Source: Oscillospiraceae bacterium (GTDB lineage: Bacteria > Bacillota > Clostridia > Oscillospirales > CAG-272). From it: DNA of 50,754 nucleotides. A program made the position numbers and the translations under genes. Location: NCBI GenBank assembly GCA_015064245.1, contig SVSQ01000003.1:1-50754 (forward strand). The letters run 5' to 3'. Positions 3,087-50,386 of the stretch are shown here, piece after piece (positions within the stretch are counted from its first letter, which is position 1; every line of letters starts with the position of its first letter). The notes under the pieces were generated by a model. The model saw nothing but the letters and a program-made list of their open reading frames with translations, was not told the DNA's origin and made no database searches.

Positions 3087-3410
3087 ATGGCTATGTTCGG
3101 ATTTACAAGACTTTCAGCCGAGGTGAAGCAGCGCCGTAAAATGGCGAAAAAGCTTCACGGCATGCATATCAAATACGTCATGGAGCGTCTGGTGGACGAG
3201 GACGACATCATCGTCGGCAGAGAGGGCGCTCTGATCGTGCGCGGGAAGGAGTTTATGGTCTTCGCCTCGCAGCACGACGTTTTCCGAAGCTACGTTGACG
3301 ATACTGATTTTTCCGAGCTTCTCAGTCTGGGCGGCGCGGTGATAATCGGTCACGACCTGCTTTCGGGTAAGGAAAGAACTCTTATCGCGCATTATACGGA
3401 CCTTGCGTGA
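3087..3410 (+). CDS. Hypothetical protein (107 aa)
   Basis: GGAG RBS, co-oriented after lipoprotein gene, normal codon usage. Confidence 0.7.
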   Translation: MAMFGFTRLSAEVKQRRKMAKKLHGMHIKYVMERLVDEDDIIVGREGALIVRGKEFMVFASQHDVFRSYVDDTDFSELLSLGGAVIIGHDLLSGKERTLIAHYTDLA

Positions 3411-3422
3411 CACTGTATATGA

Positions 3423-3589
3423 GTGCGAACATAGCCGGGTGTCACGCCTCGAAGCTTTCTCGCTGACGGCGGTCAGCGCTTTTCCCGATGGGAAAAGACC
3501 GAAATCTTCGCAGAGATTTGGTGTAGAGGAAAGTTACATTGTGTGATAGTGAGTGCGATGGGAATCGGAGATTTGGTGTAGAGGAAAGT
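3423..3589 (+). repeat. Diverged mosaic repeat: module C tail plus branched module D (3450-3510) and 22-bp direct duplication
   Basis: gtgcgaacatagcc also at 44443; aaagaccgaaatcttcgcaga shared with 39322-39342; GAGATTTGGTGTAGAGGAAAGT at 3513-3534 and 3568-3589. Confidence 0.75.
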
Positions 3590-4587: not shown

Positions 4588-4724
4588 TTTATTTTATTCC
4601 TTTCAGATTTATTATCTTTACTTACTTTTATTATTATAATACTTTTTCATAAATATTTCAAGTACTAATAATAAATTTTATGGGAGTATTTGTAAAATTA
4701 TTGGGTTGCTAAAAGGAGAACACA

Positions 4725-5215
4725 GGGATACCGTGTACCTTGTGCGAACATCTGCCGGTATCCCCATCGAATATTTCTTTTCGACGCGGTCGAAACTTTT
4801 TTCTAACGAAAAAAGCCCGAAATATTCGCCAGCCTTGGAGGAAATTTAAGATACCGTGTACCTTGTGCGAACATCTGCTGGTATCCCCGCTTAGCGGAAT
4901 TTTAAATAACAAGCTGTGTAAAGTAATTATTTCCTACCTTGGGTAGTTGCGGGAGCAACTCGGCAGTATTTCATGTACGAAAAACCGCGAGCCTGCTTAT
5001 GCGAGCGCGTTTCAGCGAGCCGTTCCCAATCTACCACGGTCTTTCTTTCTTCTTTTTGCGAGCATTTTTCTTCTTTCTTTCTCGAAAGAAGGAAGAAAAA
5101 CGCGAAATCTATATAAAAAGAAATATTAAATACAAATAATAAAACCTACATTAAATATCCGTCTTAAAAAAAGTAACTTTAATAGAAAAATTATAAAATT
5201 TACTCAAAATAACCT
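4725..5215 (+). repeat. Mosaic intergenic repeat C-D-C-B-slot-A-tail
   Basis: gataccgtgtaccttgtgcgaacatctgc.ggtatcccc twice (4725-4765, 4850-4888); D 4768-4828; gttgcgggagcaac 4946-4959; triplex module 5040-5100; 4940-5120 nearly identical to 26135-26320. Confidence 0.95.
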
Positions 5216-5266
5216 TCTTACACAAATTCAAAATAAAATTTGAAATCAAAAAAAAGGAGCATCAAA

Positions 5267-6010
5267 ATGAATACCGAACTTTTTGAGCTTGCCTGTCAAG
5301 CGGCTATACTCGTCACGCCGAAGAGCAGCGTCGGTACGCTGTCGGAGCATCGGCTTCACAGCGCGATAAAATACTACGTTCAGCCCGATATGGAGTTTCA
5401 CGAGGTCCGCGTGGACGGCTTCATCTGCGACGCAGTCAGGGAAGACGGCGAGGTGCTGGAGATACAGACCGGCGCCTTTTTCCCGCTCAGAAAAAAGCTT
5501 GAGAGACTGCTTCCATCGCACCCCGTAACCGTCATTTACCCCGTTGTGACCGAAAAACGCCTGCTGGTGACCTACGAGGAGAGCGGCGAGTGCAGTATCC
5601 GAAAGAGCCCGAAAAAAGCCACCTCTTACAACGCCTTCGCGGAGCTTTACAGGATCAGGGATTACATTTCAAACGAAAACTTTCATTTTCGTATGATCTC
5701 AGTTACCTGCGACGAGCACCGTCTGTACCTCGGGACGAAGGATGGCAGAAAGCCTTTTCAAAAGCCGATCAAAACGGAGCGCATACCCGTTTCCCTGGTC
5801 GGAGACGTCTGTTTTTACAATATGAAGGAGCTTCGCTCCGTTCTCCCTGCCGACCTTCCCGAAAACTTCGACACGAAGATACTTTCCGATATGGCAGGGA
5901 TCTCCCGCGATCTTGCGGGGATAACCCTGCGCGTGACCACTGAGCTGGGGATAACAGAGGTCGCTTGCGTTATGGGAAGGCGGAAAATATACAGATTTTG
6001 CGGCGATTGA
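5267..6010 (+). CDS. Hypothetical protein, probable PD-(D/E)XK nuclease-like fold
   Basis: GTLSEHRLH...HEVRVDGFICDAV...VLEIQT resembles E..D..ExQ core; possible C-terminal winged helix; AAGGAG RBS. Confidence 0.55.
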   Translation: MNTELFELACQAAILVTPKSSVGTLSEHRLHSAIKYYVQPDMEFHEVRVDGFICDAVREDGEVLEIQTGAFFPLRKKLERLLPSHPVTVIYPVVTEKRLLVTYEESGECSIRKSPKKATSYNAFAELYRIRDYISNENFHFRMISVTCDEHRLYLGTKDGRKPFQKPIKTERIPVSLVGDVCFYNMKELRSVLPADLPENFDTKILSDMAGISRDLAGITLRVTTELGITEVACVMGRRKIYRFCGD

Positions 6011-6796: not shown

Positions 6797-7891
6797 ATGT
6801 CAAATTACGATATTTACGTTTTCACCTTATGTCTTTTGGTGTTCGTAATGCTTACCGGACTTCTCGGAACGATGCTTGTCGTTCTGCTGAAGCAGGGATT
6901 CAAGCTGATAAGAGCGGGACTTGAGGATGAAAGAATAAAGAAAGAATATATTAAAGAAGCGGAAACAAAGCGCGCTGTGACTATTATTTCTGCCGTTCTG
7001 ACCGTTATTATGCTTATTGCTATTTTCTCGGCGTTTGCGGTGTCGATGTACGTTCAGTTCGTCGGCGACGAGCCCAAGGGCGGCGTAGCCATTCCGAAGG
7101 TAGTACTGTCGGACTCCATGTCCAAAAAACGTGAGTCTAACGATTATCTTGAAAAGCACGGACTGGACGATCAATTTCAGACCTTTGACCTGATATTCAT
7201 TCGCGAGCTGCCCGGAGAATTCGAGCTGGAGCTTTACGATATCGTCGTATACGAATACGAGGATAAGCTGATAATCCACAGAATCATCGGTATCGAAGAG
7301 CCCAACGAAAAGCATCCCGATTGCCGCCACTTTTTGTTGCGCGGTGACGCGGCTAAGTTCTCGGATGAGTTTCCTGTGCTGTACGAGCAGATGAAGGCGA
7401 TCTACGAAGGTCAGAGAATACCGTTTGTCGGAAGCTTTTTCGCGTTCATGCAGTCTCCTGCGGGATATCTGTGTCTGCTTTTGATCGTTTTTGCGGTTAT
7501 CGCAACTCCTATCACGGAGAAGAAGCTTTGGGAGGCAAAGCTTGCCCGTCTGCGCGAGATAGGCTTTATCCCTGCCGAGCCCGAGCCTACCGAGGCTGAG
7601 GCAACAGAGGAAACTGCTGAAAATGATGAAAATGATGAGGAAGTTATCGAAGTCGCAAGCGACGTGGAGCCCGAAGTAACGGAACCTGTCGAAGATGCAA
7701 GCGACGCGGAGCCCGAAGTAACGGAATCCGTCGAAGACGCAAGCGATGCGGAGACCGAAGTAACGGAACCTGCCGAAGATGCAAGCGAGTCCGAACCCGA
7801 CGCAAAAGAGTCCGCAGAAGGCTCAAATGATGCTGACACCGACGAGTCTGAAGACCCCGTCGACGGGCAAAGGCAGCAGAATGGAGATTAA
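6797..7891 (+). CDS. sipW: Signal peptidase I, SipW/ER-type (S26B-like), with acidic repeat tail
   Basis: VVLSDSM (Ser), DIVVY, IIHRII (His), LRGDA, IPFVG then TM helix. Confidence 0.75.
   Translation: MSNYDIYVFTLCLLVFVMLTGLLGTMLVVLLKQGFKLIRAGLEDERIKKEYIKEAETKRAVTIISAVLTVIMLIAIFSAFAVSMYVQFVGDEPKGGVAIPKVVLSDSMSKKRESNDYLEKHGLDDQFQTFDLIFIRELPGEFELELYDIVVYEYEDKLIIHRIIGIEEPNEKHPDCRHFLLRGDAAKFSDEFPVLYEQMKAIYEGQRIPFVGSFFAFMQSPAGYLCLLLIVFAVIATPITEKKLWEAKLARLREIGFIPAEPEPTEAEATEETAENDENDEEVIEVASDVEPEVTEPVEDASDAEPEVTESVEDASDAETEVTEPAEDASESEPDAKESAEGSNDADTDESEDPVDGQRQQNGD
7655..7800 (+). repeat. 42-bp coding tandem repeat, about 3.5 copies (ASDxEPEVTExxED)
   Basis: gcaagcga unit starts at 7655, 7697, 7739, 7781. 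Confidence 0.9.
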
Positions 7892-11418: not shown

Positions 11419-11649
11419 TTTCTTTTACTGAACCCCCGTGGTTAAAAAATACAGAATATAAAAATACATTCAAATATATTTTATCACATTTGCAGTAAAT
11501 TTCAACAACAATTTGTAAACACTTGAATATATATTATTTAACACGGTTTAAGTGTTGTGATTTTCGATAAAAAACACAAAAGCGTTTTTTCGATAATTTG
11601 GCTAATATCTAAAATATATCCCCGTTTTTGGGAAAAAATTCAAAAATAC

Positions 11650-11732
11650 TTGACAAATATGGAAAAAAGTGATATAATACACTATGTTAGCAGAGGCTAA
11701 CTCGGCGTATAGGTTAGTTAGCCGACGCTAAT
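11650..11732 (+). promoter_or_regulatory. feo promoter with two GTTAG-N6-CTAA operators
   Basis: TTGACA(11650)-N17-TATAAT(11673) with extended TG; palindromes at 11686-11701 and 11717-11732. Confidence 0.85.
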
Positions 11733-12138: not shown

Positions 12139-14151
12139 ATGAAAGTTGCCCTTACAGGTAACCCCAACTCAGGAAAAACAACAATGTTCAACGCTCTGAC
12201 CGGCTCAAGCGAGAAGGTCGGAAACTGGGCGGGCGTTACCGTCGATAAGAAGGAGCACCCCATCAGATCGAAATACGCGGGTAAAGAACAGCTGATCGCA
12301 GTTGACCTTCCCGGCGCCTACTCCATGTCTCCCTTCACCAGCGAGGAGAGCATAACGAGCGCTTACGTCAAGCAAGAGAGCCCCGACGTTATCATCAACA
12401 TCGTGGACGCCACCAATCTCAGCAGAAGCCTTTTCTTTACCACACAGCTTCTGGAGCTGGGGATTCCCATGGTGGTCGCGCTGAATAAGAGCGACATCAA
12501 CGCAAAAAAGGAGACCGAGATCGACGTTGCGGCGCTGTCCGCAAAGCTGGGATGTCCCGTTATCACCACGGTATCCACGTCGTCCAAGGGACTCAAGGCT
12601 CTGGTCGATGCGGCGATCGCCCGCGTTGGAGCGGAGCAGAAGGCTCCTTACGTCCAGAAGGACACCGATACGGAGAGCAGAGAGGCGGTGGCTCAGGCTG
12701 ACCGCGACCGCTTTGAATTCGTAAACGGTATAGTAAAGGAAGTAGAGAAGCGTAAGGTCCTCACCAAGGACAGAAACGCAGGGGACAAGATCGACGCCGT
12801 TCTCACGAACAAATGGCTGGGTATTCCGATCTTCGCTCTGGTTATGTGGGCGGTGTTCTGGATATCTCAGGCAGGTCCCGGCGTGTGGCTCTCCGAGGGT
12901 CTTGACGTAGGGGAAACTCATCTCTGGGGACTGGTCGACTGCATCGGCTGGTTCAAGGAGATCGTCGCGGGCTGGCTCGAGGGCGCTCACGACATCATTC
13001 AGGCTATCATACTCGAGGGTATAATCGAGGGTGTTGCCGCGGTCGTCGGATTTTTGCCCCTGGTAATGGTGATGTACTTTCTCATAGCTCTTCTTGAGGA
13101 TTGCGGTTATATGTCCAGAGCTACGGTAGTTCTCGACCCCATCTTTAAGAAAGTCGGACTTTCCGGTAAGTCCGTTATCCCCTTCATCATCGGAACGGGC
13201 TGCGCTATTCCCGGAGTTATGGCGTGCCGTACCATCCGTAACGAGAGAGAAAGACGCGCTACCGCGATGTTGGCTCCCTTTATGCCCTGCGGCGCAAAGC
13301 TTCCCGTTATCTCCCTTTTTGCGGGAGCGTTCTTCGATAACGCCGAATGGGTGGGTACGGTGATGTACTTCGTCGGTATAATCATCATTCTCCTGTGCGC
13401 TCTGCTCGTCAATAAGCTCACGGGCTTTAACGGCAAAAGATCCTTCTTTATCATAGAGCTTCCCGAGTATAAGATCCCGTCCTTCGTTCAGGCTTTCAAG
13501 TCCATGTGTCAGAGAGGATGGTCCTACATAGTCAAGGCGGGTACTGTTATCCTCGTTTGTAACTTCGTGGTATATATGATGCAGACCTACGGCTGGAACT
13601 TCAAGGCGGTCGAGGATCCTGCGGACTCCATACTCGCGGCTGTCGCTACACCTATCGCGTACGTTATCGCTCCTATCGTCGGCGTTGCTCTCTGGCAGCT
13701 GGCGGCGGCGGCAGTCACGGGCTTTATTGCAAAGGAGTGCGTCGTTTCGACTCTGGCTACGGTATTTATGTTCGAGCATCTCATCAACGAGGAGCTTGAG
13801 GCTGTCGGCTCTATAGGCGCCGCTAATATGGGCGGTATCTCCGTGGCGGCAGGACTTGCGTTCCTTATGTTCAACCTCTTTACTCCTCCTTGCTTTGCCG
13901 CTATCGGCGCGATGAACGCCGAAATGAAGAGCGCGAAGTGGCTTTGGGCAGGTATCGGACTTCAATTTTCGGTTGGATATACGGTAGGATTTCTCGTTTT
14001 CTTCTTCGGAACGCTCTTTACGGGCGGAAGCTTCGGCGCGGCTTGGATGCCTGTTCTCGGATGGTGCATCGTGGCTGCTATCGCCGCTCTGTTTACTGTC
14101 TTGATAATCAGAAAAAATAAAGAGCTCAAAGAGCTCAAAGAGCTCAAGTAG
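12139..14151 (+). CDS. feoB: Ferrous iron transport protein B
   Basis: GNPNSGKT, VGNWAGVT, DLPG, NKSD GTPase motifs; LEDCGYM, PFMPCGAKLP, TPPC membrane motifs. Confidence 0.97.
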   Translation: MKVALTGNPNSGKTTMFNALTGSSEKVGNWAGVTVDKKEHPIRSKYAGKEQLIAVDLPGAYSMSPFTSEESITSAYVKQESPDVIINIVDATNLSRSLFFTTQLLELGIPMVVALNKSDINAKKETEIDVAALSAKLGCPVITTVSTSSKGLKALVDAAIARVGAEQKAPYVQKDTDTESREAVAQADRDRFEFVNGIVKEVEKRKVLTKDRNAGDKIDAVLTNKWLGIPIFALVMWAVFWISQAGPGVWLSEGLDVGETHLWGLVDCIGWFKEIVAGWLEGAHDIIQAIILEGIIEGVAAVVGFLPLVMVMYFLIALLEDCGYMSRATVVLDPIFKKVGLSGKSVIPFIIGTGCAIPGVMACRTIRNERERRATAMLAPFMPCGAKLPVISLFAGAFFDNAEWVGTVMYFVGIIIILLCALLVNKLTGFNGKRSFFIIELPEYKIPSFVQAFKSMCQRGWSYIVKAGTVILVCNFVVYMMQTYGWNFKAVEDPADSILAAVATPIAYVIAPIVGVALWQLAAAAVTGFIAKECVVSTLATVFMFEHLINEELEAVGSIGAANMGGISVAAGLAFLMFNLFTPPCFAAIGAMNAEMKSAKWLWAGIGLQFSVGYTVGFLVFFFGTLFTGGSFGAAWMPVLGWCIVAAIAALFTVLIIRKNKELKELKELK

Positions 14152-14200
14152 CTCAAGTAGCTCAAGTAGCTCAAGTAGCTCAAGTAGCTCAAAAAAGCTC
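14119..14200 (+). repeat. 9-bp tandem repeat across the feoB stop codon
   Basis: (aaagagctc)x3 (aagtagctc)x5 aaaaaagctc. Confidence 0.95.
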
Positions 14201-14244
14201 AAAGCTGCGTAAGCCTTGAGCTGATGAAAGGAAATTATTGCGCT

Positions 14245-15736: not shown

Positions 15737-15765
15737 ATTATAACATATTCAAATATGTTTGTCAA
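15737..15765 (-). promoter_or_regulatory. Sigma-A promoter of rplJL
   Basis: TTGACA-N17-TATAAT on minus strand. Confidence 0.85.
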
Positions 15766-15799
15766 GTGGTTTTTGTGATTTTACATTTTGTTAATATTT

Positions 15800-16178
15800 T
15801 TTGTTTTACGCCACCGTGGCGTATTGCGGATAATTTTTTATTTTTCTAATATTTCTTTTAATATAGATTTCGCATTTTTCTTCCTTCTTTCGAGAAAGAA
15901 AGAAGAAAAACGGCTCGCAAAAAGAAGAAAGAAAGACCGTGGTAGATTTGGTACGGCTCGCCGAACCCCCTCGCGTAACACACTCCGTGTGCTCGGGGGT
16001 TGGGTACAATAGCTCCGCCAAAGCGGGGATACCAGCAGATGTTCGCACAAGGTACACGGTATCCCTGCTACCGCAACTACCTAAAGAAGGAAATGGGGGA
16101 GTTTTCTTTGTTTGTGGGTGAGATGATGTACGCACATGGTTAAAAAGGGAACACGGACTCATTTCCGAAGGAAATCCA
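15800..16178 (-). repeat. Mosaic repeat G(partial)-C-slot-A-F
   Basis: Reverse complement contains module C, gagcacacggagtgtgttacgcgag, triplex module 15875-15936 and palindrome tacgccaccgtggcgta 15807-15823. Confidence 0.95.
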
Positions 16179-16186
16179 AAAAAATA

Positions 16187-16225
16187 TCAAAGCCGCTGAT
16201 ACCTTCGCGGTGTCAGCGGCTTTGA
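16187..16225 (-). terminator. Terminator of pckG
   Basis: tcaaagccgctga...tcagcggctttga hairpin with U-rich tail on minus strand. Confidence 0.8.
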
Positions 16226-16304
16226 AGTTTTCTATAATAATTACCTTAAAGAGTAAAATCAGTATAGAAGTTTCTTTGCCTACTTTCTTTTCAAAGAAAG
16301 TAGG

Positions 16305-18092
16305 TTATGCCTTGAGTCTTGCTTCGAGAGCAGCGAGTTCGTCGTACATAGTCTGGGGAACAGCGTCGCCTACCTGAGCGTAGAACTCCTTGATATTCTC
16401 GACGTCAGCGAGCCAGGACTCCTTATCAACTGTGAGAAGCTCCTTGATTGTGTCGAGAGTGATGTCAAGGCCTTCGATGTTGATGTCCTCAGCCTTCGGA
16501 ACGTATCCGATAGGAGTGATATCAGCGTCGACCTTGCCTTCGCAACGGTCGAGGATCCAGAGAAGAACGCGCATATTGTCACCGAATCCGGGCCAAATGA
16601 AGTGACCTTCGTCGTCGGTACGGAACCAGTTAACGTGGAAGATCTTGGGAGGATTGGGGATCTTAGTACCCATAGCGAGCCAATGAGCCCAGTAGTCGCC
16701 CATGTTGTAGCCGACGAAGGGACGCATAGCCATAGGATCGCGGCGAACTACGCCGACAGCGCCTGCTGCAGCTGCAGTTGTCTCGGAAGCCATGATAGAA
16801 CCGACGAATGCGCCGTTCTGCCAGCTTGTGGACTGATAAACCAGGGGAGCTGTCTTTGCGCGGCGTCCGCCGAATACGATAGCGGAGACCGGAACGCCCT
16901 TCAGGCTGTTAAACTCGGAGGAGATGCAAGGACAGTTCTGAGCGAGAGCTGTGAAACGGGAGTTGGGATGAGCGCCGCATGTGGACTTATCCTTCTTGTC
17001 GTACTTTGTGCAGTCCCAAGGATTGCCCTTCCAGTCGATAGCGTTGCCGGGAGCGGGGGGATTGTCGTTGAGGCCTTCCCACCAAACTGTATTGTTCTTT
17101 GTATCGTGAACGACGTTTGTGAAGATAGTGTCGCGCATTGTTGTTGCAAGAGCGTTGGGGTTAGACTTGTCGTTTGTACCGGGAGCAACGCCGAAGAATC
17201 CATTCTCGGGGTTAACAGCGTAGAGCTTACCGTCTTCCTTATTTACACGGAGCCAAGCGATATCGTCGCCGACGCACCATACCTTGTAGCCCTTCTCCTG
17301 AAGCATCTTCGGGGGGATGAGCATAGCGAGGTTGGTCTTACCGCAAGCGGAGGGGAATGCCGCTGTAACGTACTTGATGTCGCCGTTAGGATACTCAACG
17401 CCGAGGATGAGCATATGCTCTGCCATCCAGCCCTCTTTGCGTCCGAGGTAGGAAGCGATACGGAGAGCGAAGCACTTCTTACCGAGAAGAACGTTTCCGC
17501 CGTAACCGGAGTTAACGGACATGATGGTGTTATCCTGGGGGAAGTGTGTGATATAACGGTTCTCCTCATCGATATCAGCACGGGCGTGAAGACCCTTGAT
17601 ATAGTCGGGGCTGTCGCCGAGAGCCTCAAGAACGTTGGTGCCAACGCGGGTCATGATGAGCATATTAAGAACGACGTAGATAGAGTCTGTGAGCTCGATA
17701 CCGTACTTAGCGAAGTCGGAGCCTACGACACCCATGGAGTAAGGGATAACGTACATTGTGCGTCCCTTCATGGAGCCTGTGTAGAGAGCCTTGAGCTTTG
17801 CGTACATTTCATCGGGAGCCATCCAGTTGTTGATGTTACCTGCCTCTTCCTTTGTGGGGGTGCAGATGAATGTTCTGCCTTCAACACGGGCAACGTCATT
17901 GATAGCGGTGCGGTGGAGGTAGCAGTTAGGAAGGATCTCCTGGTTGAGCTTGATCATTTCGCCTGTGGAGCAAGCTTCTGCTCTGAGAGCTTCTGCCTGA
18001 GCTTCGCTTCCGTCGATCCAGACGATCTTATCGGGCTGAGTCATAGCAGCCATCTCGTCGATCCAAGACAATACATACTTATTGTTGGTCAT
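16305..18092 (-). CDS. pckG: Phosphoenolpyruvate carboxykinase (GTP)
   Basis: DVARVE, YGGNVLLGKKCFALR, AFPSACGKTNLAM, VGDDIAW, NPENGFFGVAPG, HPNSRF. Confidence 0.98.
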   Translation of the reverse strand: MTNNKYVLSWIDEMAAMTQPDKIVWIDGSEAQAEALRAEACSTGEMIKLNQEILPNCYLHRTAINDVARVEGRTFICTPTKEEAGNINNWMAPDEMYAKLKALYTGSMKGRTMYVIPYSMGVVGSDFAKYGIELTDSIYVVLNMLIMTRVGTNVLEALGDSPDYIKGLHARADIDEENRYITHFPQDNTIMSVNSGYGGNVLLGKKCFALRIASYLGRKEGWMAEHMLILGVEYPNGDIKYVTAAFPSACGKTNLAMLIPPKMLQEKGYKVWCVGDDIAWLRVNKEDGKLYAVNPENGFFGVAPGTNDKSNPNALATTMRDTIFTNVVHDTKNNTVWWEGLNDNPPAPGNAIDWKGNPWDCTKYDKKDKSTCGAHPNSRFTALAQNCPCISSEFNSLKGVPVSAIVFGGRRAKTAPLVYQSTSWQNGAFVGSIMASETTAAAAGAVGVVRRDPMAMRPFVGYNMGDYWAHWLAMGTKIPNPPKIFHVNWFRTDDEGHFIWPGFGDNMRVLLWILDRCEGKVDADITPIGYVPKAEDINIEGLDITLDTIKELLTVDKESWLADVENIKEFYAQVGDAVPQTMYDELAALEARLKA

Positions 18093-19277: not shown

Positions 19278-19301
19278 GTCTTCCTTCTCTTAGTATCTCT
19301 T

Positions 19302-19330
19302 AGTATAACATATTTTTTTTCGTTTTGCAA
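19302..19330 (-). promoter_or_regulatory. Leftward sigma-A promoter facing tRNA-Thr and rsmA
   Basis: TTGCAA-N17-TATACT with extended TG on minus strand. Confidence 0.6.
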
Positions 19331-22275: not shown

Positions 22276-22399
22276 TGTTTTCTTCCTTTCGGTTTTTTGT
22301 TTACATATATATTCGAAAAAAAGAAAAATAATGAGGAGTGGGGGATTTAAAATTTTGTTTTTATTTTTTGTTTGTGTAAGACGGTTATTTTGCTTATAT

Positions 22400-22757
22400 T
22401 TTAATATTTTTTTCCGCATCTTTCTTCCTTTCTTTCGGGAAAGAAAGAAGAAAGACGCTCCAGAAAGAAGAAAGAAAGCCCGTGGTATATTTTTGACGGC
22501 TCGCTGAAAATCCTCGCGTAACACACTCCGTGTGCTCGGATTTTGGGTACATGAAATACTGCCGAGTTGCTCCCGCAACACACTAAAGCAGGGAAAAATA
22601 TTTGTACAGCTTGTTACTTAAATTTCCGCAAAGGCTGGCGAATATTTCGGGCTTTTTTCGTTAGAAAAAAGTTTCGACTGTGTCGAAAAGAAATATTCGA
22701 GGGTGATACCCGTATATGTTCACACAAGGTACACGGTATCACTGCTACCGCAACACC
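22400..22757 (-). repeat. Mosaic repeat C-D-B-slot-A
   Basis: Reverse complement matches modules at 4725-5100; D 22639-22699; triplex module 22419-22478. Confidence 0.95.
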
Positions 22758-22834
22758 CTAAAGCATCAAATCAAGCGAAAAACGGATAAAACACCCCGAA
22801 AATGCGAGTGTTTTACGAGCATTTTTGTAGAAAT

Positions 22835-22982
22835 GATCGCAGTAGTATCCTTTTTTACAACCCAAAATTCGCTCCTGCTTTTGAGCGAATTTTCAGTAGA
22901 TGTTCGCACCCGTTTCTTTTTGCTTTCTTTGGTCACTTTCTTTCCTTTTTCTTCGGAAAGAAAAAGAGAAAGAAAGTAACGT
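22835..22982 (+). repeat. Diverged mosaic repeat slot-A
   Basis: acccaaaattcgctc.tgcttttgagcgaattttcag shared with the 28660 copy; triplex module 22913-22976. Confidence 0.8.
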
Positions 22983-25914: not shown

Positions 25915-25919
25915 GTTAC

Positions 25920-26390
25920 ATTCTCGTTAAAAGAGAAAAACGCGCTTTTTGAAGGGGAAAACGGTCGCTTTTGAAAAAGCTCCGCAAAACTTCTTTTCCG
26001 CCGACACCAGAAGGCATCGGCGGAAAAGAATTCGTATGGTGTTTCCTTCGGAAATCGTCCGCGCTCCCCATTCAAGCAAGAGCACACATCATCTCACCCA
26101 CAAACAAGGAAATCCTACACTTAATTTCTTGCTTTAGGTAGTTGCGGGAGCAACTCGGCAGTATTTCATGTGCGAAAAACCGCGAGCCTGCTTATGCGAG
26201 CGCGTTTCGGCGAGCCGTTAAAAATCTACCACGGTCTTTCTTTCTTCTTTTTGCGAGCATTTATCTTCTTTCTTTCTCGAAAGAAGGAAGAAAAACGCGA
26301 AATCTATATAAAAAGAAATTTAATAGAAAAATAACAAAATTTACTCAAATAAAAAAATCTACCCAAACAAAAAAACTTACTCAAAAAATC
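25920..26390 (+). repeat. Mosaic repeat G-B-slot-A-tail
   Basis: G hairpin 25991-26030; gttgcgggagcaac at 26141; triplex module 26235-26295. Confidence 0.95.
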
Positions 26391-26410
26391 ATTTAAAAAG
26401 GAAAAAATCA

Positions 26411-28489: not shown

Positions 28490-28848
28490 TATTTTTGCGG
28501 TCATATCGCAGGGATTTTATTTGAGTAAGTTTTATAGTTTTTCTATAAATAGTTCTTTTAATATAGATTTCGCGTTTTTCTTCCTTCTTTCGAGAAAGAA
28601 AGAAGAAAAATGCTCGCAAAAAGAAGAAAGAAAGACCGTGGTAGATTTTAAGCGGCTCGCTGAAAATTCGCTCAAAAAGCACGAGCGAATTTTGGGTACA
28701 TGAAATACTGCCGAGTTGCTCCCGCAACTCCACAAGATAGGAAATAATTCGTTTGCGACGATGGCTTTTGCTGTCTTCGTAAACGAAGTTCTTTGCGGCT
28801 TGCCGCAGGCACGCGAGCTTTCATTTCAAGAAAGCGCGTACTTCTTAG
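28490..28848 (-). repeat. Mosaic repeat G-B-slot-A-tail, antisense to flanking genes
   Basis: G hairpin 28748-28787; gttgctcccgcaac near 28715; triplex module 28575-28635. Confidence 0.95.
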
Positions 28849-37123: not shown

Positions 37124-37144
37124 GGCGCACCTCCTGTTGTCGTT

Positions 37145-37173
37145 ATTATATCACAATTTTGGTTGTTTGTCAA
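37145..37173 (-). promoter_or_regulatory. Sigma-A promoter abutting right hairpin ladder
   Basis: TTGACA-N17-TATAAT with extended TG. Confidence 0.85.
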
Positions 37174-37550: not shown

Positions 37551-37573
37551 ATCGTATTCAATTGACGAGTGAT

Positions 37574-37602
37574 ATTATAACATATTTTTTTTCGTTTGTC
37601 AA
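37574..37602 (-). promoter_or_regulatory. Sigma-A promoter of tRNA-Thr/Tyr operon
   Basis: TTGACA-N17-TATAAT with extended TG. Confidence 0.85.
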
Positions 37603-39205: not shown

Positions 39206-39382
39206 AAGGGCGACCGATGGTCGTCCTTATTTTAGGTGCGCTGTGAGTTTAGGGCGAACATATACGAGCGCACCCACTCGAAGTTTTCTTTTCGACAATG
39301 TCGAAACTTTTTCCTACGGAAAAAGACCGAAATCTTCGCAGACATTTGGTGTAGATTTATGTTCCCGAAATCCGAGCACACC
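39206..39382 (+). repeat. Mosaic repeat: REP-like hairpin, C tail, D (39279-39338), slot fragment
   Basis: agggcgaccgatggtcgtcct; gcgaacatatacg; D core; aaatccgagcacac. Confidence 0.8.
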
Positions 39383-42817: not shown

Positions 42818-42825
42818 GATGTAAC

Positions 42826-43000
42826 ATTCTCGCTGAGAAGGGGAGAACGCGCTTTCTTGAAAGAAAGCTGCGCAAAGAACTTCATTTACACCGACACCAA
42901 AAGGCATCGGTGTAAATGAATTACTACGTAATTTTCTTCGAAAAAAGTATGTGTATCTCTTTCAACGAGAGCGTACATTTATTACCCCAAAACATCCTTC
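42826..43000 (+). repeat. Module G repeat immediately after ftsK stop
   Basis: cgcgctttcttgaaagaaagc; hairpin 42881-42920; similar to 25920-26120 and 50062-50250. Confidence 0.9.
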
Positions 43001-43006
43001 ATCACT

Positions 43007-43048
43007 GTAGGGGCGACCATTGGTCGCCCGCAAAACCTACACAAAACA
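43007..43048 (+). repeat. GTAG-type REP-like element
   Basis: gtaggggcgaccattggtcgcccgcaaaa, near-identical to 50316-50344. Confidence 0.85.
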
Positions 43049-43060
43049 TCCGTCAATGAA

Positions 43061-43189
43061 AGCCTTCTCCAGTGGGAGAAGGTGGCACCGTAGGTGACGG
43101 ATGAGGTGAAAAAAAGTTGATTTCTTACAAACACCTCATCCGCTTCGCATTATTAAAATGCTCAGCACCTTCTCCCACTGGAGAAGGCT
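43061..43189. mobile_element. 129-bp MITE/REPIN-like element with perfect 24-bp terminal inverted repeats
   Basis: agccttctccagtgggagaaggtg / caccttctcccactggagaaggct; inner IR cggatgaggtg / cacctcatccg. Confidence 0.7.
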
Positions 43190-44425: not shown

Positions 44426-44439
44426 GCGACACTGATTGG

Positions 44440-44795
44440 TTTGTGCGAACATAGCCTTGTGTCGCCCCTCGAAGCTTTCTTTTCGACACGGTCGAAACTT
44501 TTTTCTAACGAAAAAAGCCCGAAATATTCGCCAGCTTTGGCGGAGCTATTGTACCCAACCCCCGAGCACACGGAGTGTGTTACGCGAGGGGGTTCGGCGA
44601 GCCGTTCCGTACTACCACGGTCTTTCTTTTTCTTTCTTTCGCCTACTTCTTTCTTTTTCTTTCTCGAAAGAAAAGGAAAGAAATGGGCATTTACTAAATA
44701 AAAAGAACTTTTAAAGATAAATTACAAAATTTACTCAAATAAAACCTCTTGCGGTATGACCGTAAAAATAATTACACGCCACGGTGGCGTAAAAT
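44440..44795 (+). repeat. Mosaic repeat C tail-D-slot-A-tail-F
   Basis: D 44470-44530; 44535-44605 nearly identical to reverse complement of 15950-16022; triplex module 44621-44682; acgccacggtggcgt 44776-44790. Confidence 0.95.
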
Positions 44796-50063: not shown

Positions 50064-50255
50064 GGGAATACGGTCGCTTTTAGAAAGAAAGCCTTGTATG
50101 CCTTCGGCAAACCCGCAAAACTTTTTTCTACGCCGACACACAAGGCATCGGCGTAGAAAAAATTATTGGGTGTTTCCTTCGGAAAGAGTCCGTGGTTCCC
50201 ATTTCAAAGAGAGCATACATCATCTAACCCACAAACGAAAAAAACTCCTACAAAA
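50062..50255 (+). repeat. Module G repeat immediately after proA stop
   Basis: Hairpin 50122-50162; tttccttcggaaa; catcatctaacccacaaac. Confidence 0.9.
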
Positions 50256-50258
50256 TTG

Positions 50259-50386
50259 GTAGGGGACGGCGCCTCGACGTCCCGCAAAATCTACACAAAA
50301 TATCCCTGTGATATTGTAGGGGCGACCATTGGTCGACCGCAAAATCTACGCGAATAAAAACGGGGCGTCGAGGCGCCGCCCCCTAC
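50259..50386. repeat. REPIN-like cluster of three GTAG REPs
   Basis: Inverted pair 50259-50284 / 50361-50386 with an internal REP at 50316-50344. Confidence 0.85.

Follow-up and report, generated by a model that had tools for sequence, protein, structure and literature searches.

Repetitive extragenic palindromes (REPs) are imperfect palindromes of ~35 bp with a conserved GTAG-type head, and in bacterial interspersed mosaic elements (BIMEs) they alternate in orientation. Another kind of repeat, the intrastrand triplex repeats named PIT, BoxC or TMECO, was reportedly described by Hoyne et al. in 2000 in E. coli and other Proteobacteria. Intrastrand triplex repeats are among the least understood bacterial repeat classes; TMECO/BoxC follow the purine motif, are DNA-only and have no known function. 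Here we analyze a family of mosaic repeats that fill intergenic gaps in an Oscillospiraceae bacterium, starting from the locus at 4725-5215 of contig SVSQ01000003.1. This contig is examined at its full length of 50,754 nt (the window) and is contig C17 of assembly GCA_015064245.1 (2.15 Mb, 116 contigs, 47.7% G+C, 79.6% completeness). The modules of the family follow the order G0-G-(C-D)n-B-slot-A-tail, A being a predicted triplex. We read the family, with our confidence about evenly balanced, as lineage-specific, non-autonomous structured repeats of the BIME/BOX kind that carry a PIT/BoxC-type triplex module.

In the available text of their survey, Holder et al. (2015) report that bacteria carry intrastrand triplex motifs in multiple copies, with a connection to genome rearrangement; class IV accounts for 4% of the motifs, stems longer than 11 nt never occur in scrambled genomes, and PIT orientation is uncorrelated with associated genes according to Maher's group (PMC4666352). 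As far as that text describes PIT, BoxC and TMECO, A resembles them in being multi-copy and intergenic, in its three homopurine/homopyrimidine blocks related by complement and mirror, with one strand predicted to fold back twice, in its patchiness between close relatives and in its link to rearranged loci. TMECO, however, is G/C-rich, of the purine-motif class II (Y-R-R) and has 9-nt stems, whereas A is A/T-rich, of class IV (H-Y-R) and would form 15-17 triples. A further difference from PIT is that A is embedded in a polar mosaic of 300-500 nt whose orientation tracks genes. The three-block arrangement of complement and mirror is present at 128 of the 132 A loci and the TMECO consensus (G/C-rich, purine motif, 9-nt stems) is absent; judged by its sequence, A is therefore of the same kind as TMECO and outside its sequence family. 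The first-pass annotation of the window recognized no known family, a statement that needs amending, as the triplex module matches the PIT/BoxC/TMECO kind described in the available survey text, in its rare pyrimidine-motif class IV (PMC4666352). Within a literature search whose scope ended at subscription-only papers, Hoyne et al. 2000 included, and at the supplements of PMC4666352, we found no A/T-rich class IV family and no such Clostridial mosaics, and on bacterial intrastrand triplex repeats only Holder et al. and citing reviews.

The organization recalls that of BIMEs, which are likewise extragenic mosaics of small palindromes and conserved linkers in many combinations, with tandem amplification of unit pairs, located in operon gaps and at 3' ends; a REP-like family of GTAG palindromes also co-exists in the genome. 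The 245 loci show 36 different architectures, tandem C-D arrays among them, which makes the mosaic character evident. In contrast to BIMEs, the modules here are collinear and of one polarity, C, D, B, G and A lack a GTAG head, the elements are much longer and have distinct 3'-end and 5'-end modules, and the RAYT family (PF01797) gave 0 matches in the 79.6%-complete assembly.

In Streptococcus pneumoniae, BOX elements are built from modules (boxA-boxB(n)-boxC), and BOX, RUP and SPRITE are over-represented between convergent genes (PMC3049150). The likeness to BOX is one of organization: both are modular Firmicutes repeats with a predicted RNA fold, about 100 or more copies, no known mover and no clear target duplication, gained after close species diverged (PMC3049150). 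BOX has no triplex module, however, and A is depleted in convergent gaps (4, versus 23 divergent). A third comparison is with the ENE and MALAT1 triple helices, which, as far as the available source text describes them, share with A the strand order (U-rich Hoogsteen, U-rich Watson-Crick, purine-rich), the predominance of U.A-U over a few C.G-C triples and an interruption close to the middle (PMC7583470). By the same text, these are 3'-terminal stability elements of eukaryotic and viral RNAs with at most about 10-11 triples (PMC7583470), whereas A has 15-17 predicted triples and lies in 5' regions, often upstream of promoters. It is not an element of transcript 3' ends: besides the bias against convergent gaps, it sits at a median of 187 nt before start codons.

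Module census and architecture

Models for nhmmer, seeded with window copies and iterated, with double hits on both strands removed, detected 132 A (triplex), 103 G, 107 G0, 78 D, 50 B and 39 C modules in the whole assembly, distributed over 70 of the 116 contigs. Modules occupy 166 of the 1106 gaps of at least 30 nt (about one in seven), lie within 300 nt of 40 of the 232 contig ends, and their mosaics make up about 5% of the genome. They chain into 245 loci, and a single locus (D-G) breaks the order G0<G<C/D<B<A. C-D units are amplified in tandem, as in C-D-C-D-D-C-C-D-A, and 56 solo A and 52 solo G0-G loci add up to 108 loci with one 'end'. On contig C63, elements separate five successive co-directional genes (pgsA-like, rimO-like, recX, recA and neighbours). 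At least 10 A copies carry one identical 64-mer.

The first-pass annotation, made from the window alone, had seen the same modules, which repeat finding in the window returned as families D1-D19. All of its architectures were recovered by the nhmmer models (C-D-C-B-A, G0-G-C-A, C-D-B-A, G0-G-B-A, G0-B-A, D-A and two D with variant C), its fixed polarity and single 'master' order hold with the one violation among 245 loci, and its estimate of about a dozen loci in 51 kb agrees with the 12 mosaic loci found, among which A at 1-62, A at 22915-22973 and two G0-G are additions to its list. Its 'variable slot' requires revision. The slot is not free sequence; it is drawn from a small set of stem-loops bounded by an A-run and a short T-run, whose stems are compensated, for example CCCCC/GGGGG versus AATCC/GGATT.

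The reference locus, found by nhmmer and by parsing of the triplex, reads C-D-C-E-B-slot-A0-A-tail on the + strand (4727-5215). Its parts are C (4727-4764), D (4767-4842), a second C (4850-4887), linker E (4888-4929), B (4936-4978), the slot hairpin (4979-5012), the A0 hairpin (5013-5041), the A triplex (5043-5106) and an A-rich tail to 5215. It is flanked by a divergent Mrp/ParA-like gene and a gene of unknown function, and the next ATG is at 5268. A blastn search with 4700-5230 against the assembly returned 254 high-scoring segment pairs, far more than chance would give, with a per-base depth of 35-113, about 35-50 over C, D and B and above 100 over the triplex. In a whole-genome self-BLAST, 27-29% of crudely defined intergenic bases are repeated at least 3-5 times, compared with 1.3-2% of coding bases; this total also contains unmodelled families, namely J-K units, tails, slot hairpins, a GTAGGG-palindrome REP-like family and a long composite palindrome family.

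Predicted folds of the modules

Each module is a hairpin or junction with conserved loops and covarying stems. In module A, a pyrimidine segment and a short loop are followed by an exact mirror of that segment, then by a loop of 4-6 nt and by the purine complement of this mirror segment; in 128 of the 132 loci, which represent 69 haplotypes, the pyrimidine/purine hairpin reaches at least 10 bp. Its main subfamilies, although distinct in sequence, give 15/16, 15/17 and 16/17 perfect T.A-T or C.G-C triples, and subfamily Ib differs from I by the swap of one full triple, T.A-T to C.G-C. Regularity is broken at a single central position in every subfamily, mostly by a G.T wobble to which T is added as third base; this wobble is conserved in I-III. 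For 37 distinct haplotypes we obtained a Hoogsteen match of 0.80, a value inflated by choosing the register of maximal match, compared with 0.44-0.55 when segment 1 is slid and 0.59 when its letters are shuffled. An additional Watson-Crick helix, between the 3' part of loop 1 and the bases past the purine segment, also covaries (GTTC/GAAC, CTTC/GAAG, GCCTA with TGGGC or TAGGC; T.G in subfamily II). Since the mirror relation cannot arise via hairpin-templated repair, we take the three-way covariation of the segments to reflect selection on a folded single strand. By its sequence A is thus a pyrimidine-motif class IV intrastrand triplex (H-Y-R, 5' to 3') with a predicted fold of 15-17 triples, and the 'triplex' reading of the first-pass annotation is borne out at that level by the 15-17-nt three-segment match. 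Following the class definitions in the available part of Holder et al., the complement of A would count as a purine motif of class II (PMC4666352).

The G0-G alignment (50 copies) has 92.4% of its cells paired, versus 35-47% with the partners slid, and 152 cells altered on both sides, versus 20-28; none of 500 shuffles matches the observed values, whose totals include two helices that we added beyond the long hairpin. In this long hairpin (hairpin 2), compensatory double changes occur at 12 of the 13 pairs, and G.U occupies ~8 cells versus 7 for A.C. Helix 4 of G, derived from one sequence, is G.U-rich on the sense strand (36, 19, 15 and 8 cells at four pairs). The C hairpin displays an invariant loop, GTGCGAACAT, on at least 4 distinct complementary stems; this 10-mer occurs 98 times against about 4 expected, and in both orientations, as the C loop and inverted within A0'. 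A full palindromic box of the LexA type around the GTGCGAACAT core gave 0 matches.

Hairpin 1 of G0 (25960-26000, 42850-42890) is a short pyrimidine/purine hairpin followed by a purine tract that mirrors the purine arm, giving 5-6 potential class II triples, and its linker resembles the inverted loop 1 of A. On this evidence, which is weak in that the parser missed 71 of the 107 loci, a full element would hold inverted triplex-type motifs at both ends; with so few triples and so many loci missed, we record the motif and do not claim it as a short class II triplex.

Two other approaches to the fold were set aside. Folding energy favours the sense strand for A0+A (83/103) and the antisense strand for G0-G (73/81); because the sense strand of G is rich in C and A, which confounds the comparison, we did not use it as a strand test. 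Rfam models at gathering score identified three tRNAs and the L10 leader in the window and none on the elements, while across 18 related loci one tRNA was the sole match; an rpsB sRNA model scored 23.9 bits on an element (gathering score, 40), a chance alignment of pyrimidine runs.

Placement relative to genes

All counts in this section rest on our crude codon-usage open reading frame (ORF) finder and inherit its weakness; orientation counts were assessed with binomial tests. In gaps between tandem genes the modules are mostly co-oriented with the genes rather than anti-oriented (A 57:16, G 71:9, G0 72:11, B 23:3, C 20:4, D 32:18). This holds in both local GC-skew classes ('leading' and 'lagging'; A 30:10 and 27:6), and we thus rejected the replication strand as the cause of polarity. 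G0 begins no more than a few tens of bases from the stop codon of the upstream gene, and G and G0 lean towards convergent gaps (5 divergent versus 11 convergent for G, 5 versus 13 for G0), opposite to A. In the 99 of 132 loci where A is followed by a start codon with a Shine-Dalgarno sequence, the median distance to it is the 187 nt given above. A sigma-70 promoter matching at least 11/12 consensus positions intervenes in 19 of these 99 loci and one matching at least 10/12 in 33, while 51 have none better than 8/12; in nine loci a perfect 12/12 promoter lies 93-197 nt downstream of A. Examples of promoters downstream of A are those of rplJ (12/12, then the L10 leader), secA (genus-conserved) and feoA of a sister species. 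At least six divergent gaps contain a head-to-head pair of elements with an identical central junction. The modules are not placed at random, as fragments of one element would be: G0-G is tied to 3' ends and A/B/C/D to 5' regions, often before consensus promoters.

This placement raises the possibility, which we consider less likely than the BIME/BOX reading, that the modules are host-selected cis-elements punctuating transcripts, their repeat nature being secondary. G0-G would shield the upstream message from 3'-to-5' exonucleases, and the hairpins and A would block 5'-to-3' decay or insulate the downstream unit. RNase J-type 5'-to-3' decay is a property of Firmicutes. Orientation that tracks transcription and not GC skew, together with G0-G at 3' ends and A in 5' regions, fits this proposal, as do the 51 of 99 loci with no promoter better than 8/12 between A and the start, and a locus of another genus (L152), where a triplex ends 22 nt ahead of an ATG with a Shine-Dalgarno sequence in between. 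A, being of the pyrimidine motif, could form in RNA as well as in DNA, to judge from its sequence; according to the available survey text, the purine motif could not form in RNA (PMC4666352). G.U pairs on the sense strand point the same way (the central wobble of A in I-III, T.G in the extension helix of subfamily II, helix 4 of G), and the central U.G-U is listed, in the accessible part of the source, among the more stable non-canonical RNA triples (PMC7583470). The operon-like secA junction of congeners is also in keeping with it. However, a promoter of at least 11/12 separates A from its gene in 19 of 99 loci and one of at least 10/12 in 33. At rplJ, secA, feoA (contig L103) and the gene on contig L107, A ends just upstream of the -35 box and therefore lies outside those transcripts. 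In none of the 23 divergent gaps did we find an upstream co-oriented gene or a promoter of at least 10/12 to feed the element. Hairpin 2, moreover, shows no G.U excess (about 8 G.U versus 7 A.C cells), and the elements are patchy among relatives, with congeners lacking them and 95 of 100 other genomes of the family without a match to the triplex pattern. The A modules upstream of promoters and the unfed divergent gaps argue against RNA as the full explanation.

The same promoter-proximal loci could be read at the DNA level, with non-B structures upstream of promoters (triplexes or cruciforms extruded by the negative supercoiling that transcription drives, or scaffolds for a DNA-binding protein) acting as topological or transcriptional insulators. 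The nine loci with A 93-197 nt before 12/12 promoters, the 19 of 99 with a promoter of at least 11/12 and the head-to-head pairs sharing one junction in at least six divergent promoter regions would agree with such a role. So would the strictly Watson-Crick stems of hairpin 2, as in DNA palindromes, the occurrence of GTGCGAACAT in both orientations (C loop; inverted in A0') and the class II purine motif on the complement of A, which, by the class definitions in the available survey text, would make both strands foldable (PMC4666352). We nevertheless consider it unlikely. Plain H-DNA requires a mirror repeat alone, whereas the purine segment on the same strand and the sense-strand wobbles point to a one-strand fold; a sink of supercoils should be largely indifferent to gene orientation; G0-G at stop codons is left unexplained; and no protein partner is known.

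Canonical terminators in G0-G were considered and set aside. The stretch 25916-26120 contains no canonical terminator, and a terminator-like site (mostly slot or A0 hairpins with T-rich runs) is present in 23 of 76 G0/G gaps versus 136 of 737 module-free tandem gaps, which are shorter; the comparison is not decisive.

Turnover among relatives and strains

In what follows, G000 denotes the present assembly, other G-numbers (G033, G043 and so on) other genomes of the family, and L-numbers loci or contigs outside the assembly. Searching 30 relatives by blast with 4725-5215 gave no real match; a single genome, of another family, produced two chance-level hits. Twelve of the 30 are congeners, whose SecA is 69-83% identical. 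The distance from secA to the orthologous membrane-protein gene is about 10-250 nt in 11 congeners, where the junction is operon-like, versus 497 nt here, and the 497-nt gap consists entirely of G0-G-B-slot-A-tail.

Scanning metagenome contigs with exact patterns revealed five contigs of one project, with genes 80-91% identical to those of G000 and the same modules; on sequence, they belong to a sister species carrying the same repeat family. On two of them (L103, L107), A and its tail lie immediately upstream of conserved TTGACA promoters, while the G000 counterparts are unique sequence of repeat depth 0 (11420-11650 of the window; C3:4813-5003). This is the comparison of filled and empty sites in close relatives that the first-pass annotation had called for, although both pairs are cut by contig ends on the far side, and neither a target-site duplication nor a precise boundary of insertion emerged. 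Contigs L104 and L105 carry different modules at sites orthologous to those of G000, in agreement with the proposed reshuffling. Contig L106 lacks 2.2 kb (a rimO/miaB-like gene and the equivalent of one element) that are set between two copies in G000 (C63:15478-17692), beside recX-recA, which looks like a deletion or insertion via recombination between repeat copies, as far as the two sequences allow. A mobility gene trapped between these two C63 elements had been considered and was discarded, the gene being the rimO/miaB-like radical-SAM gene. A further metagenome search, anchored on the 454-aa neighbour protein, produced 54 pattern-matching stretches, none of which encodes a relative.

These contigs also bear on the trivial explanation that the mosaics are chimeras of short-read assembly. 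The contigs of the metagenome-assembled genome (MAG) and the Logan unitigs do break at element edges, and all of the evidence comes from short reads. But in the five contigs of the independent project the modules and their order are unchanged and the elements adjoin orthologous genes; 245 loci conform to one order; and many elements are contig-internal between unique genes, such as the five consecutive ones on C63. We regard an artefact as scarcely credible.

At the strain level, element bins in Logan contigs from three DNA runs of three studies are 10-30 times as deep as unique bins, which also speaks against an artefact of this assembly. The public runs examined contain no joint of an empty site. 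One metatranscriptome run has contigs over 22645-22761 and 22807-22980; given a multi-copy element and possible DNA carry-over, these neither show nor exclude transcription.

Search for a mobilizing function

No sequence terminal inverted repeat (TIR) was seen when the loci were compared by eye, and no repeat longer than 1 kb at 95% identity or more exists in the assembly. Six mobile-element enzyme families were searched, namely RVT_1 (PF00078), Y1_Tnp (PF01797), the TnpB TNB domain (PF07282), IS110 DEDD (PF01548), DDE_Tnp_1 (PF01609) and rve (PF00665). The resulting absence of matches in the 79.6%-complete assembly covers the linked enzymes suggested earlier (RAYT/HUH, IS200/605, IS110, reverse transcriptase) and agrees with the statement that neither shared TIRs nor a transposase had been noticed. 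Failure to find a mover is nonetheless weak evidence for its absence, with 20% of the genome absent and insertion sequence (IS) copies often failing to assemble or bin. An integron-like cassette array was rejected, the neighbours being core genes (secA, dnaE, ftsK, rplJ, recA) and the copies spread over 70 contigs. A viral origin was also rejected, as an A pattern and a B pattern had 0 matches in viral contigs.

It is possible in principle that the modules are ends, or derivatives of the miniature inverted-repeat type, of a known IS family (IS200/605 with REP/RAYT, IS110, IS630) whose autonomous copy lies outside the bin. The incomplete assembly, in which repeats and IS are under-assembled and 40 of 232 contig ends fall within 300 nt of a module, leaves room for such a copy; the GTAGGG-palindrome REP-like family of the same genome sometimes stands behind G; and in G074 facing triplex pairs across about 190 nt resemble TIRs. 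Against this, all six transposase and reverse transcriptase families gave 0 matches and no long high-identity repeat was found, the two module patterns are absent from viral contigs, orientation follows genes and not the replication skew expected for single-strand-acting HUH elements, and 56 solo A and 52 solo G0-G lack a second end. An origin from a known IS family thus appears quite improbable.

Proposed origin and spread of the mosaics

Based on the above data, we return to the reading of the family as selfish non-autonomous repeats of the BIME/BOX kind, which is fitted by copy identity, patchy distribution, filled and empty sites, tandem amplification and recombination scars. In the proposed scheme, selection would maintain the fold of the sense strand, whether as transcript or as non-template DNA, and copies would be spread by a trans-acting function not found in the incomplete assembly. 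Homologous recombination between modules may then shuffle, multiply and delete copies. Surviving insertions would be those that are expression-neutral, with 3' modules past stop codons and 5' modules before promoters or ribosome-binding sites, along the direction of transcription. In transcribed copies, the stem-loops or triple helix probably hinder exonucleases, and the elements probably space transcription units apart, as other repeats of this kind do. 'BIME-like, with an unknown mechanism of spread', as the family was first described, is a fair description. The idea of pieces of one master element, spread and recombined, stands as regards collinear order, reshuffling and filled/empty sites, and fails as regards placement, which is not random.

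Several observations weigh against a selfish origin. The six enzyme families gave 0 matches in the assembly although the control genomes were positive. A occupies 23 divergent versus 4 convergent gaps in a genome that has 195 and 192 (p = 3e-4), and such placement therefore needs either targeting or a function. More generally, module identity depends on the adjacent gene end, which misfits a merely tolerated parasite. In the three DNA runs, strain contigs stop at the same element edges; therefore, many insertions are shared among strains, old and fixed. Finally, position specificity and three-way covariation would equally fit host-selected cis-elements, and the ORF finder limits whatever is drawn from placement.

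Triplex repeats in other genera

A structural pattern (12 Y, gap, 13 Y, gap, 13 R) was used to scan 100 other genomes of the family. It gives 180 + 187 overlapping matches in G000, where the mirror-read control pattern gives 0, and none in 95 of the 100. Multi-copy triplex families of unrelated sequence are present in G074 (about 20 loci), G090 and G043, while G069 has one true triplex locus and G100 two doubtful matches. The mirror-read pattern (R-Y-Y, class III) is itself multi-copy in G033 and G075, the G075 version being G/C-rich. Among 250 genomes of other families of the class, we found no multi-copy triplex and six genomes with a single non-mirrored locus. In these samples, multi-copy triplex repeats are patchy and confined to one family. 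A covariance model of A0+A (R1) retrieved three weak matches from the 100 family genomes, one of which (G069) is the true triplex of different sequence; sequence models therefore do not carry across genera.

The look-alikes share more than the triplex. In G074, G043 and G090 it is again 3'-terminal in a hairpin-rich repeat, and G043 and G090, which are of different genera, have a common hairpin-hairpin-hairpin-triplex layout with compensated stems. In G074, paired triplexes point towards each other, with about 190 nt of AT-rich DNA between the two. At L143, L145 and L152 the triplex is co-oriented with an ORF starting 22-100 nt downstream, and L152 is the locus with the Shine-Dalgarno sequence in this interval.

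A bolder, rather doubtful proposal is that A and its counterparts of unrelated sequence are a functional helix of 15-17 triples in the sense transcript, located between cistrons and in 5' leaders. Such a helix would be the longest natural RNA triple helix and, among bacterial mRNA elements, the first of the ENE/exonuclease-resistant type; G0-G would be its counterpart at the 3' terminus of the message before it, and the whole cassette would be a self-propagating 'intergenic punctuation'. If so, the RNA triple helix of A would block 5'-to-3' decay or insulate transcription units. With ~130 copies in 2 Mb, gene polarity and look-alikes in sister genera, the family supplies natural covariation data on a long triple helix and makes it tractable to test whether bacteria employ such folds to insulate promoters or in the decay of RNA. 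In addition, the mosaics break short-read assemblies and appear to mediate deletions (the rimO-like gene between copies), and are thus relevant to the quality of gut MAGs and to the interpretation of intergenic DNA.

Other loci and repeats in the window

The other eleven mosaic loci are listed here, beginning with those on the + strand. The contig begins (1-120, +) with an A of subfamily III truncated by the contig start (nhmmer match 1-62, three segments read) and an A-rich tail. At 3405-3530 (+), right after the stop at 3410, a variant C hairpin (motif at 3422; loop GTGCGAACAT, stem GTGACAC/GTGTCAC) precedes a D three-way junction matched by nhmmer (3449-3525), and a variant C hairpin with D (match at 39278-39354) is also present at 39250-39360 (+; family D9/D12/D19). 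G0-G stands right behind the ftsK stop at 42818-43000 (+; modules 42866-42992) and right behind the aldehyde dehydrogenase stop at 50064-50245 (+; modules 50113-50239). From the secA stop, the element at 25916-26400 (+) runs through G0-G (25978-26108), B (26130-26171), slot, A0, A (26238-26301) and tail. Between the 5-formyltetrahydrofolate cyclo-ligase gene and yceG, the element at 44428-44760 (+) has a variant C, D (44469-44545), slot, A0, A of subfamily II (44629-44684) and a tail with palindrome F.

On the - strand, the element at 15790-16300 comprises G0-G (16231-16107, behind the phosphoenolpyruvate carboxykinase stop at 16305), C (16063-16026), slot, A0, A (15933-15868) and a tail with palindrome F; downstream of it come the 12/12 sigma-70 promoter, the L10 leader (15738-15558) and rplJ. 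The C-D-linker-B-slot-A0-A-tail element at 22390-22780 (-; modules 22412-22740, A 22476-22412) faces a D-Ala-D-Ala carboxypeptidase gene and is head-to-head with J-K-slot-A0'-A at 22800-22980 (+; A 22915-22973), which is immediately upstream of the genus-conserved secA promoter. The G0-B-slot-A0-A-tail element at 28490-28800 (-; modules 28569-28798, A 28632-28569) is anti-oriented to both flanking genes, and its tail hairpin on the + strand resembles a terminator for the upstream gene.

The closest SecA matches are to gut and rumen Clostridia (Eubacteriales, Ca. Flemingiibacterium, Ruminococcus sp. CAG:382), with a top identity of 65%. Several short contigs of the bin are 81-89% identical over 1-4 kb to others (C1 and C11 versus C31, C70 and C36), and C1 (10.6 kb, 11 genes) has no module; this suggests that a second, related organism may be mixed into the MAG, for which the contamination figure is 2.74%.

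Other repeats accompany the mosaics. A separate multi-copy family with a GTAGGG head and a G+C-rich palindrome (43006-43045, 50260-50299, 50315-50354), often behind G, bears the hallmarks of a classical REP, although the search of the assembly for Y1/RAYT genes gave none. A composite palindrome family of 110-190 nt, unrelated to the mosaic modules, has GCCTTCTCC...GGAGAAGG arms around GACGGATGAGGTG...CACCTCATCC (for example, 43055-43110). A near-consensus promoter module (TTGACA, 17 nt, TATAAT, with a conserved spacer; family D13) is repeated at 15742-15770, 19301-19330, 37144-37173 and 37573-37602, ahead of rplJ and near tRNA genes. About ten tandem 9-nt units (AGCTCAAAG / AGCTCAAGT; family D5) extend across the 3' end of the FeoB gene and beyond (14105-14201), and four in-frame 42-nt repeats at 7605-7814 (family D4) encode an acidic Glu/Asp/Pro-rich stretch in a protein without a Pfam family.

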